Assembly (NCBI RefSeq): GCF_004010195.1
Contig: NC_057718.1
Location: 66,836,179 to 66,900,178, forward strand
DNA: 64,000 nucleotides
Direction of reading: 5' to 3'
Source: Chiloscyllium plagiosum
Taxonomy: Eukaryota
The translations under genes were made by a program, and so were the position numbers. The notes under the pieces were generated by a model. It did no database searches. It was given only the letters and a program-made list of their open reading frames with translations, and was not told the DNA's origin. Positions 6,963 to 64,000 of the stretch are shown one piece after another; position 1 is the stretch's first letter; each line of letters opens with the position of its first letter.

Positions 6963-7070
6963 ATTATTATAATGGATCGAAAGAAGATCAAAAACCATTA
7001 TCTGAAAACTTGGTTTACCGTGGATCTGATTGGTATCATGCCTGTTGATTATGTTTTTCTGTGTGCAAAA
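6963..7070 (+). CDS. Internal coding exon of a divergent HCN-family channel (S2-S3 linker and S3 helix)
   Basis: Polypyrimidine tract ttttcttttctttcaatAG acceptor and GTAAGT donor at 7071; 108 nt, phase 0/0. Translation IIIMDRKKIKNHYLKTWFTVDLIGIMPVDYVFLCAK matches HCN [32 protein letters not shown]. Not in the ORF track; the 6924..7193 minus ORF is its antisense shadow. Confidence 0.93.
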
Positions 7071-12897: not shown

Positions 12898-15800
12898 ATA
12901 GAGTCATTGAGTCATAGAGATGTACAGCATGGAAACAAACTCTTCGGTCCAACCCGTCCATGCCGACCAGATATCCCAACCCAATCTAGGCCCACACCTG
13001 CCAGCACCCGGCCCATATCCCTCCAAATCCTTCCTATTCATATACCCATCCAAATGCCTCTTAAATGTTGCAATTGTACCAGCTTCCACCACTTCCTCTG
13101 GCAGCTCATTCCATACCCGTACCACCCTCTATGTGAAAACGTTGCCCCTTAGGTCTCTTTTATATCTTTCCCCTCTCACCCTAAACCTATGCCCTCTAGT
13201 TCTGGACTCCCTGACCCCAGGAAAAAGACTTTGCCTATTTACCCTATCCATGCCCCTCATAATTTTGTAAACCTGTATTAGGTCACCCCTCAGCCTCCGA
13301 CGCTCCAGGGAAAACAGCCCAGCCTGTTCAGCCTCTCCCTATAGCTCAAATCCTCCAACCCTGGCAACATCCTTGTAAATCTTTTCTGAACCCTTTCAAG
13401 TTTCACAACATCTTTCCGATAGGAAGGAGACAAAAATACATGCAATATTCCAACAGTGGCCGAAACAATGTCCTGTACAGCCACAACATGACCTCCCAAC
13501 TCCTGTACTCAATACTCTGACCAATAAAAGAAAGCATACCAAATGCCTTCTTTACGCTCCTATCTACCTGCGACTCCACTTTCAAGAAGCTATGAACCTG
13601 CACTCCAAGGTCTCTTTGTTCAGCAACACTCCCTAGGACCTTACCATGAAGTGTACAAGTCCTGCTCAGATTTGCTTTCCCAAAATGCAGCACCTCGCAT
13701 TTATTTGAATTAAACTCCATCTGCCACTTCTCAGCCCATTGGCTCATCTGGTCAAGATGCTGTTGTAATCTGAGGTAATCCTCTTCGCTGTCCACTATAC
13801 CTCCAATTTTCATGTCATCTGCAAACTTACTAACTATACCTCTTATGCTCGTATCCAAATCATTTATGTAAGTGACAAAAGGTAGAGGACTCAGCACCTA
13901 TCCTTGTGGCACTCCACTGGTCACAGGCCTCCAATCTGAAAAACAACCCTCCACCACCACCCTCTGTCTTCTACCTTTCAGCCAGTTCTGTATCTAAATG
14001 GCTAGTTCTCCCTGTATTCCATGAGATTTAACCTCCCATCAGTCTCCCATGGGGAACCTTATAGAATGCCTTACTGAAGTCCATATAGATCACATCTACT
14101 GCTCTGCCCTCATCAATCCTCTTTGTTACTTCTTCAGAAAACTCAATCAAATTTGTGAGACATGATTTCCCACGCACAAAGCCACGTTGACTATCCTTAA
14201 TCAGTTCTTGCCTTTCCAAATGCATGTACATCCTGTCCCTCAGGATTCCCTCCAACAACTTGCCCACCACCGAGGTCAGGCTCACTAGTCTACAGTTCCC
14301 TGGCTTGTCCTTACCACCCTTCTTAAACAGTGGCACCACGTTAGCCAACCTCCAGTCTTCGGGCACCTTACCTGTGACTATCAATGATACAACTATCTCA
14401 GCAAGAGGCCAACAATTACTTCTCTAACTTCCCACAGAGTTCTAGGGTACACCTGATCAGGTCCTGGGGATTTATCCACCTTTACCCATTTCAAGACATC
14501 CATTACTTCCTCCTCTGTAATCTGGACATTTTGCAAGATATCACCATCGATTTCCCTACAGTCTATATCTTCCATATCCTTTTCCACAGTAAATACTGAT
14601 GCAAAATACTCATTTAGTATCTCCCCATTTTCTGCAGCTCCACACAAAGTCCGCCTTGTTGATCTTTGAGGGGCCCTATTCTCTCCCTAGTTACCCTTTT
14701 GTCCTTAATATATTTGTAAAATCCCTTTCGATTTTCCTTAATTCTATTTGCCAAAGCTATCTCATGTCCCCTTTTTGCCCTCCTGATTTCCCTCTTAAGT
14801 ATACTCCTACTTCCTTTATACTCTTCTAAGGATTCATTCCTGTCTATACCTTACATATGTTTCCTTTTTCTTTACCAAACCCTCAATTTCTTTAGTCATC
14901 CAGCATTCCCTCTACCTACCAGCCTTTCCTTTCACCTTGACAGGAATATACTTTCTCTGGATTCTCGTTATCTTCCCATTTTCCAGCCGTCCCTTTCCCT
15001 GCAAATATCTGCCCCCAATCAGCTTTCGAATGTTCTTGCCTAATACCGTCAAAATTGGCCTTTCTCCAATTTAGAACTTCAACTTTTAGATCTGGTCTAT
15101 CCTTTTCCATCACTATGTTACATCTAATAGAATTATGATCGCTGTCCCCAAAGTGATTCCCCACTGACACCTCAGACACCTGCCCTGCCTTATTTCCCAA
15201 GAGTAGGTCAAGTTTTGCACCTTCTCTAGTAGGTACATCCACATACTGAATCATAAAATTGTCTTGTACGCACTTAACAAATTCCTCTCCATCTAAACTT
15301 TTAACACTATGGCAGTCCTAGTCAATGTTTGGAAACTTAAAATCCCCTACCATAACCACCCTATTATTCTTACAGATAGCTGAGATATCCTTACAAGTTT
15401 GTTTCCCAATTTCCCTCTGACTAATAGGGGGTCTATAATACAATCCCTATAAGGTGATCATCCCTTTCTTATTTCTCAGTTCCACCCAAATAACTTCCCT
15501 GGATGTATTTCCGGGAATATCCTCCCTCAGCACAGTTGTAATGCTATCCCTTTTCAAAATGCCACTCACCCTCTTCTCTTGCCTCCCTTTCTATCCTTCC
15601 TGTAGCATTTGTATCCTGGAACATTAAGCTGCCAGTCCTGCCCATCCCTGAGCCATATTTCTGTAATTACTATGATATCCCAGTCCCATGCCCTGAGTTC
15701 ATCTGCCTTCCCTGTTAGGCCCCTTGCATTGAAATAAATGCAGTTTAATTTATTAGTCCTACCTTGTCCCTGCTTGCCCTGACTGTTTGACTCGCTTCTG

Positions 15801-16247
15801 TTCTCAACTGTACCAGTCTCAGATTGATCTCTTTCCTCACTATCTCCCTGGGTCCTACCTCCCCCACCTTACTAGTTTAAATCCTCCCAAGCAGCTCCAG
15901 CAAGTTTCCCTGCCAGTGTATTAGTCCCCTTCCAATTTAGGTGCAATCCATCCTTCTTGTACCTTCACTTCTACCCCAAAGGAGATTCCAATGATCCAAA
16001 AATGTGAATCCTTCTCCCATACACCAGCTCCTCAGCCATGCATTCATCTGCTCTATCCTCCTATTCCTGCCCTCACTAGCTCATAGCACTGGGAGTAATC
16101 CAGATATTACTACTCTCTGTAATCTTCCTTCAGAATCTCAAAACCTTTTCCCTTCCTATGTCGTTAGTTCCAATGTGGATAATGACCTCTTGCTGGCCCC
16201 TCTCCCCCTTGAGAACATTCTGCACCCTCTCTGAGACATCCTTGATC
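12898..16247 (-). mobile_element. CR1 (HER1-like) LINE, nearly complete ORF2 with frameshifts plus ORF1 remnant
   Basis: PTREGAKLDLLL (EN), KSPGPDQVYPR, VDVIYMDFSKAF, SKFADD (RT), VRVWNELPEEVV; microsatellite-like tail at ~12900. Confidence 0.92.
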
Positions 16248-32492: not shown

Positions 32493-32632
32493 ACTGCTGG
32501 AAGTAATATCTAATATATTCCTTATACACTATGTAACATTCAATATTAGTGTCATGGGATTTATTATTGTCATGTGATTTATTTTCGACAAAAAAGTTTT
32601 AATTATTTTGAATATTGTTCCTGTCTTGAAAG

Positions 32633-32773
32633 TATGTAGGTGGTGTTGACGTCCCTCCTGTAGGATATGCTACTTCCCGATTAGTTCGCCTCATTAAACT
32701 AACTAGAATAATGAGCTTACTACGTCTGTTGCGTTTCTCAAACCTTATGAGATATGTGCGATACTGGAAAGAG
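32633..32773 (+). CDS. Internal coding exon of the same HCN-like channel (S3-S4 linker and S4 voltage sensor)
   Basis: Acceptor ttgttcctgtcttgaaAG and donor GTATGT at 32774; 141 nt, phase 0/0. Translation YVGGVDVPPVGYATSRLVRLIKLTRIMSLLRLLRFSNLMRYVRYWKE aligns without gaps to HCN [36 protein letters not shown], and the exon ends at the same intron position as in vertebrate HCNs. Confidence 0.93.
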
Positions 32774-35494: not shown

Positions 35495-37005
35495 CTGGAA
35501 TTCTGGAAAGCGTGAAAATAGATAAGTCCCCTGGGCCAGATGGAATTTATCTTAGGATTCTCTGGGAATCAAGAGAAGAGATTGCAGAGTCTTTGGCTTT
35601 GATCTTTATGTCGTCATTGTCTACAGGAATAGTACTAGAAAACGGGAGGAAAGCAAATGTTGTGCCCTTGTTCAAGAAGGGGAGTAGAGACAACCCTAGT
35701 AATTATAGACCAGTGAGCTTTACTTCAGTTGTGGGTAAAGTGTGAGAAAAGATTATAAGAGATAGGATTTATAATCATCTAGAGAGGAATAAGTTAATTA
35801 GGAATAGTCAACATGGTTTTGTGAAGGGTAAGTTGTGCCTCATAAATCTTATTGAATTTTTTATAAGATGACCAAACAGGTGGATGAGGGTAAAGCTGTT
35901 GATGTGGTGTATATGGATTTCAGTAAAGCATTTGATAAAGTTCCCCATGGTAGACTATTGCAGAAAATACGGAGGCATGGGATTGAGGGTGATTTCACGG
36001 TTTGGATCAGAAATTTGCTAGCTGAAAGAAGACAGAGGGTGGTGGTTGATGGGAAATGTTTATCCTGAGTTCAAATACTAGTGGTGTACTGCAAGGATCT
36101 GTTTTGGGTCCACTGCTGTTGTCATTTTTATAAATGACATAGATGAGGGTGTAGAAGGATGGGTTAGTAAATTTGTGGATGACACTGAGGTCGGTGGAGT
36201 TGTGGATTGTGCAGAGGGATGTTGCAGGTTACAGAGGGACAGGGATATAGATATGCTGCAGAGCTGGGATGAGAGATGGCAAATGGAGTTTAATGCGGAA
36301 AAGTGTGAGGAGATTCACTTCAGAAGGAGCAACAGGAATGCAGAGTACTGGACTAATGGTAGGACTCTTGGTCACGTAGATGAGCATACGATCTCTGTGT
36401 CAAGGTACATAGATCCCTGAAAGTTGCCACCCAAGTTGATAGGGTTGTTAAGACGACATACGGTGTATTAGCTTTTATTGGTAGAGGGATTGAGTTTTGG
36501 AACTATGAGGTCATGTTGCAGCTGTACAAAACTCTGGTGTGGCTGCACCAGTTCTGGTCACTGCATTGAAGGAAGGATATAGAAGCTTTAGAAAGGGTGC
36601 AGAAGAGATTTACTAGGATGCTGTCTGGTATGGAGGGAAGGTTTTATGAGGAAAGGCTGAGGGACTTGAGACTGTTTTCTTTGGAGAGAAGAAGGTTGAG
36701 AGGTGACTTAATTGAGACATATCAGATATTCAGAGGGTTAGATAGGATGGGCAGTGAGAGCCTTTTTTCCTCGGAAGGGTGATAGATATAGGACAGATGT
36801 CAGAGGTAGTTTCTTTATTCAGAGAGTAGTAGGAGTGTAATAGTAGTAGATTTGCCAACTTTAAGGGCATTTAAGTGGTAATTGAATAAACATATGGATA
36901 AAAATGGAATAGTGTAGGATAGATAGGCTTCAGCTTGGTTCCACAGGTCGGCGCAACATCAAGGGCCAAAGGGCCTATATTGCGCTGTAATGTTCTATGT
37001 TCTAT
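35495..37005 (+). mobile_element. 5'-truncated CR1 LINE (RT and 3' end)
   Basis: DKSPGPDGIYLRIL, VDVVYMDFSKAFDKVPH, QKRFTRML; (TTCTATG)n tail at ~36992-37005. Confidence 0.9.
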
Positions 37006-50798: not shown

Positions 50799-50957
50799 AT
50801 TCATGAGTGGGATGTAGGTATGACAAAAGTCTTGCATTTAATGTACTGGATTGGTATTGCAGTACTTTTTTGTCACTGGAATGCCTGTTTACAATTTCTC
50901 ATTGTGATGATACAAGAATTTCCTGAGAATAGTTGGGTGCACATTCAAGATCTTGAG
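50799..50957 (+). CDS. Internal coding exon of the same HCN-like channel (S5 helix and turret)
   Basis: Acceptor tttgtttcacttctacAG and donor GTGAGA at 50958; 159 nt, phase 0/0. Translation IHEWDVGMTKVLHLMYWIGIAVLFCHWNACLQFLIVMIQEFPENSWVHIQDLE matches HCN [49 protein letters not shown]. Lies within ORF 50559..50993. Confidence 0.93.
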
Positions 50958-54951: not shown

Positions 54952-55780
54952 TGTTATAAAGCAGTGGTTGACCACTCTCTGAGAATTAAAACTAATACAC
55001 CCGAAGAGGAGCACCTCACCCTATAATTTGTAAAATGAATGTGAAAAGTTATGTAACCTGCTTTTCAGCAACTAATAGTGGTCAAATAAAGTAAATCACT
55101 GACACACACTTTAAAATCAATAAGTAATAATTTATTTAACTCTAACAGTGAACAGACTGAATAAATCCCTTCCAACTACTAATTGTTCCCAAATAAAACA
55201 AGATTCTAATGGTATGCTAATGGTTCCAGTAAATACAAGTCCTCATGAAAAAAAAAGAGCTTATTTGCTCGAAATTACAGCCAGGTTGTTTGGCTTCCAG
55301 AATGTTCTGTACCTTTTCCATTAAGTCTTCTGTCAGGAATGCCCTTTCCTCCAATTATTCAGGAATGCCTGGTTAATTGTTCTTCTGTCAGGAATGCCTT
55401 TGTGGTGCTTTCTCTAATACGTAGATTACTTAGAGTCAAACAAATTTCTCACGAGAGAGATGTGGGCCGTTAGCTCTGGTGATGGCAGTTAGCTCTGGGA
55501 TCTTTGTTCGACTTCCTTTATACCCTTGATGACATATCTTTATTTCTTATAATAGAATTGTTGTAAAAACCATCTAATTTAAATTTAATAGGTTTTTAGT
55601 ATCTAAGTGCCTGGTTCAAAATGATTCAAAACCCTGTTGTCTTGGTAAAAACTTCTGCTTGGTGTACTAACTGTATTTCGGCCATTTGCTATAAATGTTT
55701 TAGTTTAGACTCTTTATGTACTTTCATTTTAAATCTCTAAGCACAGAAAAAAACACACTATCTTTTTAAAGGGACCATGG
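54952..55780 (-). mobile_element. LTR-like repeat
   Basis: Starts TGTTATAAA; AT-rich with minus-strand AATAAA and TATAAA; organisation resembles 1198-1814. Confidence 0.4.
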
Positions 55781-56334
55781 AATGCTTTTCCCCCTAGCAC
55801 TTTACAATTTTACAAACACCAAATTTGAACTTCCTGCCTCCCAATCTACAATTACTCTACCCAACTTCACAACAGATGATGTCAAAGCTAGACTCACCTT
55901 CCAAAGAAAATTGAGAGACTGCTGTGTGTTTTGCTTCATAGAGACATGTCTCAATTCTGCCATACCTGACTGTGCCTTACAACCTGAGGGTTTCTTAGCC
56001 CACTGAATGGACTCCTCAGTGTCCACGGGCAAGACAAGGGGTGGTGGGACCTGCTTCCTGATCAACACCACCTGGTGCCAGATGTGGTGTCTCTGGCGAG
56101 TTACTCCTCCCAGGACCTAGAATATCTTAGTCAAGTGCCATCTCTACCACCTGCCATGTGAGTTCACCTCAGCTATCCTGACAGTGGCCTATGTCCCACA
56201 CCATGCAGGAGTGCACTTGGTAAAGTATACAATGCTACAATCAGTCTTGGACAGAATACCCTGAAGTCTTGATCATCGTATCTGGTGACTTCAACCAAGT
56301 CAACCTTAAAGTGCTAGCAAAACACTATCAACAC

Positions 56335-57030
56335 ATGGATGCAGGTTCATAGTTCCTTGAAAGTGGAGTCGCAGGTAGATAGGATAGTGAAGGTGGCATT
56401 TGATATGCTTTTCTTTATTGGTCAAAGCATGAGTATAGGAGTTGGGAGGCCTTGTTGCAGCTGTACAGGACATTGGTAAGGCCACTTTTGGAATATTGTG
56501 TGAATTTCTGGTCTCCCTCCTATCGAAAGGATGTTGTGAAACATGAAAGGGTTCAGAAGAGATTTAGAAGGATGTTGCCAGGGTTGGAGAATTTGAGCTA
56601 TAGGGAGAGGCTGAATAGGCTGGGGCTGTTTTCCTGGAGATTCAGAGGCTGAGGGGTTCACCTTATAGAGGTTTATAAAATCATGAGGAGCATGGATAGG
56701 ATAAATAGGCAAGGTCTTTTCCCTGGCATGGGTGAGTCCAGAACTAGATGTCATTGGTTTGGGATTAGAGGGGAAAGATATAAAAGTGACCTAAGAGGCA
56801 ACTTCTTCACGCAGGTGGTGGTGTGTGTATGGAATGAGCTGCCAGGGGAAGTGGTGGAGGCTGATACAATTAAAAACGCATCTGGATGGGTATATGAATA
56901 GGAAGGGTTTAGAAGAATTTGGGCCAAATGTTGCCAAATGGGACTAGATTAGTTTAGGATATCTGGTCAGCATGGATGAGTTGGATTGAAGTTTCTGTTT
57001 CCATGATGTACATCTCTATGACTCTATGAC
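56335..57030 (+). mobile_element. CR1 LINE 3' fragment
   Basis: LYRTLVRPLLEYCV.FWSP; (CTCTATGA)n tail. Confidence 0.88.
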
Positions 57031-57121
57031 ATCTCCTGTCACAGCAGAGGGCGGAACAACCTTGATCACTGCTATACAATCAAAGATACCTACTGCTCCA
57101 ACCCCTGCACTTTGGAAAATA

Positions 57122-57440
57122 GGGGCAGCACAGTGGCTCAGTGGTTAGCACTGCTGCCTCACAGCGCCAGGGACCTGGGTTTGATTCTAGCCTCGGGCGA
57201 CTGTCTGTGTGGAGTTTGCACATTCTCCACGTGTCTGCGTGGGTTTCCTCCGGGTCCTCCGGTTTTCTCCCACAGTCCAAAGATTGCAGGTTAGGTGAAT
57301 TGGTCATGCTAAATTGCCCATAGAGTTAGGTGCATTAGTCAGGGGGAATGGGTCTGGGTGGGTTACTCTTTGGAGGGTCGGTGTGAACTAGTTGGGCCGA
57401 AGGGCCTGTTTCCACACTGTAGGGAATCTAATCTAATCTA
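57122..57440 (+). mobile_element. HE1-like V-SINE, full length
   Basis: Box A TGGCTCAGTGG, box B GGTTTGATTCT, V domain gtggagtttgcacattctcc, CR1-type tail and (CTAAT)n. Confidence 0.9.
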
Positions 57441-59901
57441 AAACTCTGTGCTCCTCCTCCCAGTTTACAAGTCAAAATTGAAGCAAGAGGACCCGGTACA
57501 GAAAGATGTGCAGTGTGGATCTGAGGCAATGGAAGGGCTTCTACAGGACTGTTTTGAGTTGATGGACTGGTTCATATTCAAGAACTTAGCAGCTAACCTA
57601 AATGAGTATTCCACTACAGTTATGGACTTCATTAGTAGTTGTGTAGATGATTGTGTGTCAAAGATGTTAATCCAAATGTTCCCCAACTGGAAACCATGGA
57701 TGAACTCCCTACTGATGTCCATGTACAACCTTCACAAGGCCATCACACATGCCAACAGGCAATACCAAACGAAGCTTGAGATCCAGACTAACCACACAGA
57801 CACCAGTCACTTGTGGCAAAGCTTATACTGCATAACTGGTTACATAGAAAAATTGAGCAGAATCGCAGCAATAATACATCCCTATCCAATGAGCTCAATG
57901 CATTCTACACTGACTTTGAACGGAAGCACAGTGAAACAATGTTACCTGTCCCAACAGCCTCAGATGCTCCTATACCCATGGTCTCTGCCACAGACATTAG
58001 ATCGGCTTTCTTGAGAGTGAACCTGGAAAGTGACTGATCTGGATGGAGTCCCCAGCTATGCACTCAGAACCTGTCAGGCTGGCAGCAGTATTCACTGACA
58101 TCTTTGGCCTTCTAACTTTGATCTGAAGACCCTACTTGCTTCAAAAAGACCACCTTCATCCCGGTACTAAAAGAAAATCACACAATGTGCCTCAATAACT
58201 ACCACCCGGTGGCTCTAACCTCCATTATTATGAAGTGCTTTGAAAGGTTAGTCATGGCTCACATCAACTCCAGCTTACCAGATTGCCCTGATTCTTTGCA
58301 ATTCACCTACTAGCACAACAGGTCCACGCCAGATGCCATCTTCCTGGCCCTACACTCACTCCTAGAACATCTGAATAATGAGGATACCTTTGTCAGGCTC
58401 CTACTTATTGACTACAGGGCCACCTTCAACACCAGAATGCCAAACAGCTCACCTCTAAAGTCTGAGACCTAGGTCTCAGCTCTTCCCTCTGTAACTGGAT
58501 CCTTGACTTCCTGATGCATAAACAGTAAATCGGTAAGATTAGGCGACAGCACTTTCTCCACGATGATTCTCAGCACCAGTGCCCCACAAGGCCATGTACT
58601 CAGCCCCTTACTGCACTTCTTATACTCATGACTTCTTATACTCAGTGGCCAAATTCTGACCCAACTCTATTTACAAGTTTACTGATGACACCACTGTTGT
58701 AGGTTGGATCTCAAATCATGATGAGACAGAGTACAGGAAAGAGTACTTAGTGGCATGGTGTAAAGACAACAACCTCTCCGTCAATGTCAGCAAAATGAAG
58801 GAGCTGGTCATTGACTTCAGGAAGTGAGTGGATGGCATACCCTTGTCTGCATCAATAGTGCTGAAGTGGAGAAGGTGGAGAGTGTCAAGGTCCTGGTAGT
58901 AATGATGACCAACAATCTGTCCTGGTCCACCCACATTAATGTGATGGTCAAGAACGCACAAAGCGCCTCTACTTCCTCGGGACGCTAAGGAAATTTGGAA
59001 GTCCACAAAGACTCTTACCAATTTTTATAGATGCATCATAGAAAGCATCCTGTCTGGATGCATCACAGCATGATACAGCAACTTGCTCTTACCAAACAAC
59101 AACAGAGAGTCACAAACACAGGTTCAGCCTTCCATCAACCGACTCCATCTATACTTCCTGCTGCATCAGGAAAACAATCAAGATAATCAACGACCCTTCC
59201 AACCCCAGTTATACTCTTCCACCCTTTTCTGGTCAGTTAGAAGGTATAAAATGAATATACATCCGAACAGATTCAAGAACAGCTTCTCCCCTGCTGTTAT
59301 CAGACTTTTGAATGGACCTCTCAAATGCTAATGCTGATCTCTCTCTCTGCACCATCTCTGTGGCTGTAACACTATTATGCACTCTATTCTGCTAACGTGA
59401 TGCACATTCTCTGGTACAATCTGCCTGTAGAGCATGCAAACAAAACTTTTCACTTTATTTCAGTACCTGTTGCAACAATAGATTAAGGCAAATCAAATCA
59501 TGCTTGAGAAAGGGGAGATATGGGAGGGCTGTTCATTTTCAGTCAGGAGCTTGCCCTCAAGGAGGGGAACGTGTATGACCTCAATTGACATGGTCACCTC
59601 AAAAGCAGGGGCTTAGAGGAACAATGGGCCAGTGCAGACTTATGTAGATGGGTTGCGTAGGAATGTGGGGAAGTGTGAAGCCTATGGTTTCCTGTGAAGG
59701 ACTAGGAGAATATAGATATGGATGTTTGTGATCTCACTGACACAAAGACGAAGATTGCAAGCCACTGGCTGAAGAGTGCTCACTATCACCTTCGATTGTA
59801 CTAGAAATAGAAATTACACAATGGGAAAAAATAATGCTGCAACCACATTCAGAGTGGATGGGGTAAGTGATTCAAAGATTTGAATTATAAAGAAAAGCTG
59901 G

Positions 59902-62954: not shown

Positions 62955-64000
62955 TTCTGGATGTGGGTTTGCTCACTGAGCTGGAAGGTTCATTTCCAGA
63001 CGTTTCATCACCATAACTAGGTAACATGTTCAATAGGCCTCCAGGCGAAGCACTGCTGATAATTCCTGCTTTCTATTTATATGTTTGGGTTTCTTTGGGT
63101 TGGTGATGTCATTTCCTGTGGTGATGCCATTTCTTGTGGTGATGTCATTACCTGTTTATTTTCTCAGGGAGTGGTAGATGGGGTCTAACTTGATGTGTTT
63201 GTTGATAGAGTTCCAATTGGAATGCCATGCTTCTTGGAATTCTCGTGTGTGTCTCTGTTTGGCTTGTCCTAGGATGGATGTGTTGTCCCAGTCGAAGTGG
63301 TATCCTTCCTTATCTTTATGTAAGGAGAAAGTGAGGTCTGCAGATGCTGGAGATCAGAGCTGGAAATGTGTTGCTGGAAAAGCGCAGCAGGTCAGGCAGC
63401 ATCCAGGGAACAGGAGAATCGACGTTTCGGGCATAAGCCCTTCTTCAGGAAGGGCTTATGCCCGAAACGTCGATTCTCCTGTTCCCTGGATGCTGCCTGA
63501 CCTGCTTATCTTTATGTAAGGATAGTAGTGAGAGAGAGTCATGTTGTTTTGTGGCTAGTTTATGTTCATGTATCCTGGAAGCTAGTTTTCTGCCTGTTTG
63601 TCCAATGCAGTGTTTGTTACATTTCTTGCAAGGTATTTTGTAAATGACATTAGTTTTGCTTGTTGTCTGTATAGGGTCTTTCAAGTTCATTAGCTGCTGT
63701 TTTAGTGTGTTGTTGGTTTTGTGGGCTACCATGATGCCAAGGGGCCTGAGTAGTCTGGCAGTCATTCCTGAGATGTGTTTGATGTAGGGGAGAGTGGCTT
63801 GGGTTTCTGGACATGTTTTGTCTGCTTGTTTGGGTTTGTTGCTGAGAAATCGGTGGACTGTGTTCATTGGGTACCCATTCTTTTTGAATACACAGTATAG
63901 GAACTATGCAGAGCAGAGGAAAATCATCTATATCTAGTATGGTGATGAAACGTCTGGAATTGAACCTTCCAGCTCAGTGAGCAAATCTACATCCAGAACC
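62955..64000 (-). mobile_element. Penelope/Poseidon-type PLE 3' part with GIY-YIG endonuclease and inverted terminal copy
   Basis: TLPYIKHIS...NVIYKIPCKKCNKHCIGQTGRKLASRIHEH (63445..63867 -); 62955-63020 is the reverse complement of 63935-64000. Confidence 0.88.
63327..63504. mobile_element. Young PLE pLTR insertion with a perfect 57-bp hairpin, nested in another PLE
   Basis: Arms 63387-63443 and 63449-63505; 18-bp TSD cttatctttatgtaagga at 63309 and 63505. Confidence 0.9.

Follow-up and report, generated by a model that had tools for sequence, protein, structure and literature searches.

The window analysed here, a stretch of 64,000 nucleotides from the genome of Chiloscyllium plagiosum, encodes an S4 voltage sensor of the HCN type in which a lower arginine of the charge ladder is replaced by asparagine. 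To what kind of channel does this sensor belong, and is the substitution likely to alter voltage dependence or to open a path for ions through the sensor itself? On the plus strand, frame 2 of the window reads YATSRLVRLIKLTRIMSLLRLLRFSNLMRYVRYWKE, followed by a GT donor. The S4 stretch at 32666..32773 aligns without gaps to residues 248-283 of human HCN1. This bears out the assignment to the HCN family in the preliminary description of this DNA, along with the ladder given there: where HCN1 has K249, R252, R255, R258, K261, S264, R267, R270, R273 and R276, this sequence has A, R, R, K, R, S, R, R, N and R. Two of nine charges are gone (K249 to Ala and R273 to Asn) and the central Ser is retained. 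The codon at 32696-32698 encodes Lys, again as first described, at the site where Met defines HCNL channels (the third S4 position, R258; PMC7306766). The coding exon, the fourth of the gene, has phase 0 and exceeds the stretch initially noted; it ends in YWKE rather than the QWEE of HCN1 (i.e., E282 is Lys). The features of the window are as follows.

6963..7070, plus strand: coding exon 3, encoding the S2-S3 link and S3, countercharge D225 retained; phase 0 at both ends, 97% identity to P0001/P0005, AG/GT ends
32633..32773, plus strand: coding exon 4, encoding the S3-S4 linker and the S4 voltage sensor; AG at 32631-32632, in the frame of the orthologs
32669..32671, plus strand: Ala where HCN1 has K249, the outermost residue of the ladder; the site varies in alignment A3
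32696..32698, plus strand: Lys at HCN1 R258, the HCNL Met position; charge retained, HCNL signature absent
32714..32716, plus strand: central ladder Ser (S264), retained by the HCN1 alignment
32723..32734, plus strand: R267 (32723-32725) and R270 (32732-32734), both retained by the HCN1 alignment
32738..32740, plus strand: helix-break Ser (S272), retained by the HCN1 alignment; role from PMC6904216, cited in part
32741..32743, plus strand: AAC, Asn replacing HCN1 R273 (R5), from the alignment and reads
50799..50957, plus strand: coding exon 5, encoding the S4-S5 link, S5 and turret, with R297 replaced by His and N300 by Tyr, from the ortholog alignment

The preliminary description allowed for the Asn being a sequencing error, an explanation ruled out by the AAC codon at 32741-32743, which is identical in 6/6 covering contigs from three organisms (X3 and X9 from organism A, X10 and X15 from organism B, and X19 and X20 from one sample of organism C). 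Two of the eight runs (X18, X24) do not cover the codon. Exon 4 differs among the covering contigs at three sites: two synonymous differences in S4, at 32698 and 32759, and a Pro-to-Ser difference at 32654 in the S3-S4 linker. Contig X9 is unspliced. In the one RNA run used, of which ~2% was read, 0 reads fell on exon 4.

Orthologs were located in Scyliorhinus, Amblyraja and further entries, and a profile search together with an HCNL-type query added bony-fish, coelacanth and other vertebrate relatives. With ortholog P0005 as a query on the genome that contains the window, we identified ten exons that span ~300 kb of contig C9; three lie within the window. All ten are open, with AG/GT bounds where inspected and 60-97% identity to P0005 for the exon-length matches, which rules out a pseudogene. 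The pore, S6 and CNBD exons are all present; the pore and S6 matches extend into introns, and where aligned these exons have 75-94% identity to P0005. Exon 2, outside the window, carries S2, where the charge-transfer Phe F186 is replaced by Ser (in the alignment this Ser falls on the Cys introduced in the F186C HCN1 structures). The gene retains the acids D183, D189 and D225. The selectivity filter is encoded by exon 6, also outside the window (C9:66902789 onward, L030), and reads CLDYA, with Asp at the first Gly of GYG. Exon 10, likewise outside, encodes the nucleotide-binding cassette, in which the key Arg is retained and the next Thr is replaced by Glu. Among the orthologs, skates share the CLDYA filter of this gene, other sharks have CLDYG, and bony vertebrates have TLNYG, TLSYG or SLGYG (L030, L018). 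Five database models of this gene (P0004, P0012, P0013, P0014 and P0158) have in-frame exon skips, either real isoforms or model errors, and S4-S5 is among the segments skipped in the Acipenser model and in one entry of skate type.

The traits of an HCN channel in the wide sense are all present (six helices, a long S4, the central Ser, a C-linker and a cyclic-nucleotide-binding domain). The cNMP_binding profile scored above cut-off in orthologs P0005 and P0006; Ion_trans did not reach its cut-off. We made a fold model of the skate ortholog P0006, which has the same Asn and the same CLDYA filter and stands in for the protein of the window. The model has a pLDDT of 84.6 and an S4 that is an unbroken helix (212-249), and the top 21 structural matches listed are all HCN1/3/4 structures.

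Databases label the orthologs HCN1-like, HCN2-like or HCN4-like. We built a tree of 42 rows (LG+G4, quick search), in which orthologs serve as proxies for the window's own protein; 13 rows of a 55-row set were left out (P0003, P0017, P0069, P0138, P0144, P0152, P0182, P0187, P0291, P0295, P0297, P0319 and P0331). All HCN-like proteins form a single clade (SH-aLRT 100). Clade A (SH-aLRT 100) contains the elasmobranch orthologs, Latimeria, Acipenser, gar, teleosts and entries that we take to be amphibian. A second clade (99) is that of HCNL/hcn5, in which two cartilaginous-fish proteins are basal; it was recognised by Met258 and by AISYG, QISYG or ALSYG filters, zebrafish HCNL1 itself not being among the rows. 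AU tests, run under the same model (LG+G4) on hypotheses named after the tree was seen, rejected the placement of the shark orthologs with HCNL alone (p 3.9e-6) and that of clade A with HCN1-4 (p 1.7e-8). The elasmobranch branch has a length of 0.57 changes per column, and long-branch attraction may have influenced the LG+G4 tree.

The same genome has four canonical S4 loci and another HCN-like gene, on contig C12. All 10 exon loci on C9 have shark clade-A proteins as best matches, and all 8 loci on C12 match the other shark group. CFAP91 follows the C12 gene on the same strand at a distance of ~57 kb, and a fused sturgeon HCNL-CFAP91 model has this order too. Given the tree, the split of best matches and the CFAP91 linkage, the sequences identify the C12 gene as the shark HCNL ortholog and the gene of the window as a sister paralog of HCNL. 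Orthology of the window's gene to HCNL is ruled out by the tree, the first AU test and the linkage of CFAP91 to the C12 gene; a divergent HCN1-4 is ruled out by the tree, the second AU test and the four canonical loci elsewhere in the genome. S1-S4 are spread over three exons in both the C9 and C12 genes, and occupy one exon in each of the four classic loci of this genome. We found no synteny with the electric-eel locus, which lies beside TERF1 (fused model P0132): the two Myb-domain matches are on C4 and C17, not on C9, and the teleost orthologs are therefore without synteny support. None of the matches is a holocephalan ortholog of this gene.

Several features of the HCNL group were recorded. 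The shark HCNL ortholog (G000:C12:48742082-48846653; L006, L038-L048) has GNSYG as its filter, Tyr both at 186 and at the site of the HCNL Met, and Ser at 273. In the assembly of this genome it also has Gln at both R267 and R270, where P0161 and P0194 keep both Arg, so its sensor may be largely uncharged. In the early-branching HCNL proteins P0312, P0174 and P0346 the Met is replaced by Leu and the GYG filter is intact (VGYG, CIGYG); they are possible intermediates having both pathways. In the HCNL-type proteins P0331 (Electrophorus) and P0335, Ser, Ser and Thr at 252-258 replace the outer charges and the Met.

How unusual are the changes at 273 and 186? In alignment A3 (65 rows; numbering checked against the F143, M153, I160, F186, D189, D225, D290, N300 and K412 of published work), position 273 is Arg or Lys in 59/59 rows outside the cartilaginous-fish HCN-like proteins and neutral (Asn, Ser or Thr) in 6/6 inside. 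Among orthologs it is basic in 7/7 from bony vertebrates (Arg or Lys in the bony fishes) and neutral in 4/4 from elasmobranchs. Asn is present in two skate-type proteins and Ser in the shark entries P0001, P0005 and P0009. The conserved feature is neutrality, not Asn. The earlier expectation of a change common to sharks and rays thus stands for the loss of charge, seen in all six rows, and falls for the Asn itself. Position 186 is Ala or Thr in 4/4 elasmobranch orthologs and Phe or Tyr in the 61/61 other rows. In a wider count (357 proteins collected, of which 299 passed anchors), 273 is basic in 280/299; 13 of the 19 neutral proteins are cartilaginous-fish HCN-like entries, isoforms counted, and the other six are distant exceptions. 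Joint loss of R273 and F186 occurs in nine entries of this gene and in one distant protein of 1373 aa, P0249. No reversion to a basic residue at 273 was seen among the cartilaginous-fish sequences. On the tree, parsimony (two steps versus three) favours separate losses of R273 in the two shark HCN-like paralogs.

Loss of K249, which the preliminary description had counted as part of the altered ladder, is ordinary: the position is basic in only 0/7 bony-vertebrate orthologs, 4/12 HCNL rows and 8/29 rows outside the vertebrate groups of A3, and we discarded it as a signal. Tyr at N300 is present in 4/7 bony-vertebrate orthologs and is older than the Asn. Between the first Arg of S4 and the Ser before 273, the shark and skate proteins are at most one conservative residue apart. 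The S1-S3 neighbours in the shark branch are more hydrophobic, with Ile at N179, Ile or Met at S229 and Met at 153 (Thr in the bony orthologs). Among the other vertebrates of clade A, P0168, P0186, P0285-P0287, P0190 and P0167 have lost outer S4 charges, with Asp, Glu, His or Pro at 252-258; they retain R267, R270 and a basic 273, and have the filters VGYG, ISYG and IGYA.

The channel resembles classic HCN1-4 (human HCN1, HCN3 and HCN4 structures) in the fold predicted for skate P0006, in the long S4 with S264 and S272, in R267/R270, D183/D189/D225 and W281, and in the C-linker and CNBD with its phosphate-binding Arg; identity of the orthologs to HCN1 is ~40%. It differs from them at R273 (Asn/Ser), F186 (Ser/Ala/Thr), E282 (Lys), R297 (His) and N300 (Tyr), in its CLDYA/CLDYG rather than CIGYG filter, in having S1-S4 in three exons rather than one, and in forming a separate clade. 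With HCNL1/HCNL2 (hcn5 of bony fishes; PMC7306766) it shares the joint HCN-like clade, Arg at 261 and an altered filter, and its exon layout is that of the shark HCNL ortholog; however, the canonical filter is lost via Asp, rather than via Ser or degeneration, and Met at 258 is absent. HCNL rows keep Phe or Tyr at 186 (12/12) and a basic 273 (12/12), unlike this gene.

We tentatively favour the view that the charge-transfer centre is remodelled in an intact shark and skate HCN-like channel by loss of R273 and F186, so that the up state is likely destabilised and, at voltages less negative than for HCN1-4, an open or partly open channel is predicted. During hyperpolarisation of HCN1, R270 and then R267 pass F186 (PMC10317503, PMC11189445 and PMC6904216, each cited in part); R270, there numbered R4, crosses F186 as the channel opens, and R273 is numbered R5 (PMC11189445, in part). 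K5 occupies the charge-transfer centre in the up-state structure of Kv (PMC3149438, in part). With S4 up, R273 would likewise be the nearest charge beneath F186, and would probably pair with D189 and D225; the closeness of residues 186 and 273 is taken from published descriptions of HCN1 and Kv, not from the P0006 model. Without R273 and the Phe barrier, the acids D189 and D225 may capture R270 one step earlier. The up state would be destabilised and the barrier lowered, such that the sensor would move more easily and gating would shift to positive voltages. In Hv1, F150A alone gives faster opening and no leak (PMC6754559, in part). The changes at the coupling residues (N300 to Tyr, E282 to Lys and R297 to His) would act in the same direction. 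They resemble mutants of sea-urchin HCN that fail to close at positive voltages, where hydrophobic residues at the N300 equivalent leave ~50% of the conductance and E356A leaves ~10% (PMC7078272, in part).

The sensor should still sense voltage, because R267, R270, S272, D183, D189 and D225 are intact. Current would pass through the central CLDYA pore, which is unlikely to prefer K+, with no sensor pore of the HCNL1 type. The product would be a fast, weakly voltage-dependent channel, open near rest, that conducts, if at all, through a non-canonical pore. The altered voltage dependence proposed in the preliminary description is thus judged likely, as a prediction from the loss of R273 and F186. 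The shark HCNL ortholog is a counter-point, since it lost R273 and keeps an aromatic residue at 186, and the two changes are therefore not obligately coupled. Their co-occurrence in this gene represents one branch of the tree, not repeated events, and some of the changes may be tolerated drift, given the long elasmobranch branch. A further counter-point is the equivalent Arg-to-Gln change in mouse HCN2, which reportedly harms mainly folding or trafficking; our literature search found no paper on an HCN2 Arg-to-Gln series.

It is rather unlikely, in our view, that the protein is instead a non-conducting or modulatory subunit, or that its sensor drives something else, in which case sealing and precise gating would matter differently. 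Such a role would fit the Asp at the first Gly of the filter, the Thr-to-Glu change adjoining the nucleotide-binding Arg, and the isoform models P0012-P0014, which skip S4-S5 exons in frame. Kir3 pores in which the first Gly of GYG is replaced by Ser or an acidic residue are non-selective but not dead. Ser at this Gly renders HCN4 subunits non-conducting, and HCNL2 with its xxSYG filter gave no functional expression (both PMC7306766); by analogy, the CLDYA pore may not conduct at all. A silent subunit would not account well for an S4 that varies by at most one conservative residue up to the Ser before 273 across sharks and skates, for retention of both mobile Arg and all three acids, or for the fact that both S4 differences among the three organisms are synonymous.

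Loss of the plug Phe makes a further, up-state pore possible. In this unlikely scenario protons or cations would flow through the sensor while S4 is up: an Hv1-like Arg-Arg-Asn series, with a small residue where the Phe plug was, would leave the constriction with no charge sealing it, the CLDYA pore would be dead, and the tetramer would have a polarity opposite to that of HCNL1, a second independent route to a conducting sensor within the HCN family. Hv1 has Asn one step past its last mobile S4 Arg, and replacing that Asn by Arg or Lys abolishes outward proton current (N214; PMC5065317, in part; PMC7306766). The likeness is an analogy only, however, as the equivalence of N214 and R273 is an assumed register; Hv1 retains its Phe (F150), relies on an Asp in S1 and lacks a pore domain. 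There is no mid-helix Asp or Glu in S1 of the window's gene, in the register that we presume for the acidic selectivity residue of Hv1 (D112), although HCNL lacks a mid-S1 acid too. Protons leak through Hv1 double gasket mutants in which F150A is one of the two changes, but not through the single F150A mutant (PMC6754559, in part). The sister clade HCNL conducts via its sensor (PMC7306766), the same Arg is lost in both shark HCN-like paralogs, and the canonical filter is gone in this gene; on the other side, the hydrophobic residues at N179, S229 and 153 may rebuild the seal, and the pore and S6 exons are 75-94% identical to P0005, unlike the unconserved filter of HCNL1 (PMC7306766).

That loss of the Arg is simply tolerated, with a small effect and gating much like that of the bony-fish orthologs, appears improbable. 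Asn, Ser and Thr are all found at 273, and in the cited parts of PMC6904216, PMC10317503 and PMC11189445, R273 is not among the main gating charges. Arguing against tolerance, the position is basic in 280/299 proteins and in every non-chondrichthyan row of A3 (59/59), the cartilaginous-fish sequences seen have no reversion, and a near-invariant Phe is lost as well.

A hyperpolarisation-opened proton pore of the HCNL1 kind at a new site, which the preliminary description had entertained, would be consistent with the sister relationship to HCNL and with the gap in the Arg series, but is very improbable because position 258 is Lys, R267 and R270, the charges that enter the constriction by passing F186, are intact, and the Asn at 273 starts below the plug and moves away from it (PMC10317503 and PMC11189445, each in part), never reaching the constriction on hyperpolarisation.

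Our literature search, with subscription papers outside its scope, returned HCNL1/2 only, and no third HCN-like lineage or shark HCN-like channel (including in PMC11700363, PMC7533707 and the part of bioRxiv 10.64898/2026.04.08.717291 consulted). The present analysis adds the joint loss of R5 and of the plug Phe, together with the parallel loss of R5 in shark HCNL. Few parts of a voltage sensor are better conserved than the charge-transfer Phe and its up-state partner. The shark and skate lineage is thus a natural double mutant in an intact channel, and tests the role of this centre in hyperpolarisation-gated channels, with the gar and coelacanth orthologs, which retain Phe and Arg, as natural controls. 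If the sensor does conduct, it would be a native gating-pore channel of polarity opposite to HCNL1, and would bear on how Hv1-type sensors pass protons. The parallel Arg loss in both shark HCN-like paralogs hints at a pressure common to cartilaginous fishes.

The introns of the window (e.g., at 13263-15868, 35856-36779, 55770-58034 and 63448-63973) contain broken pieces of LINE-type reverse transcriptase/endonuclease and of Penelope-type elements, recognised by eye in the translations.
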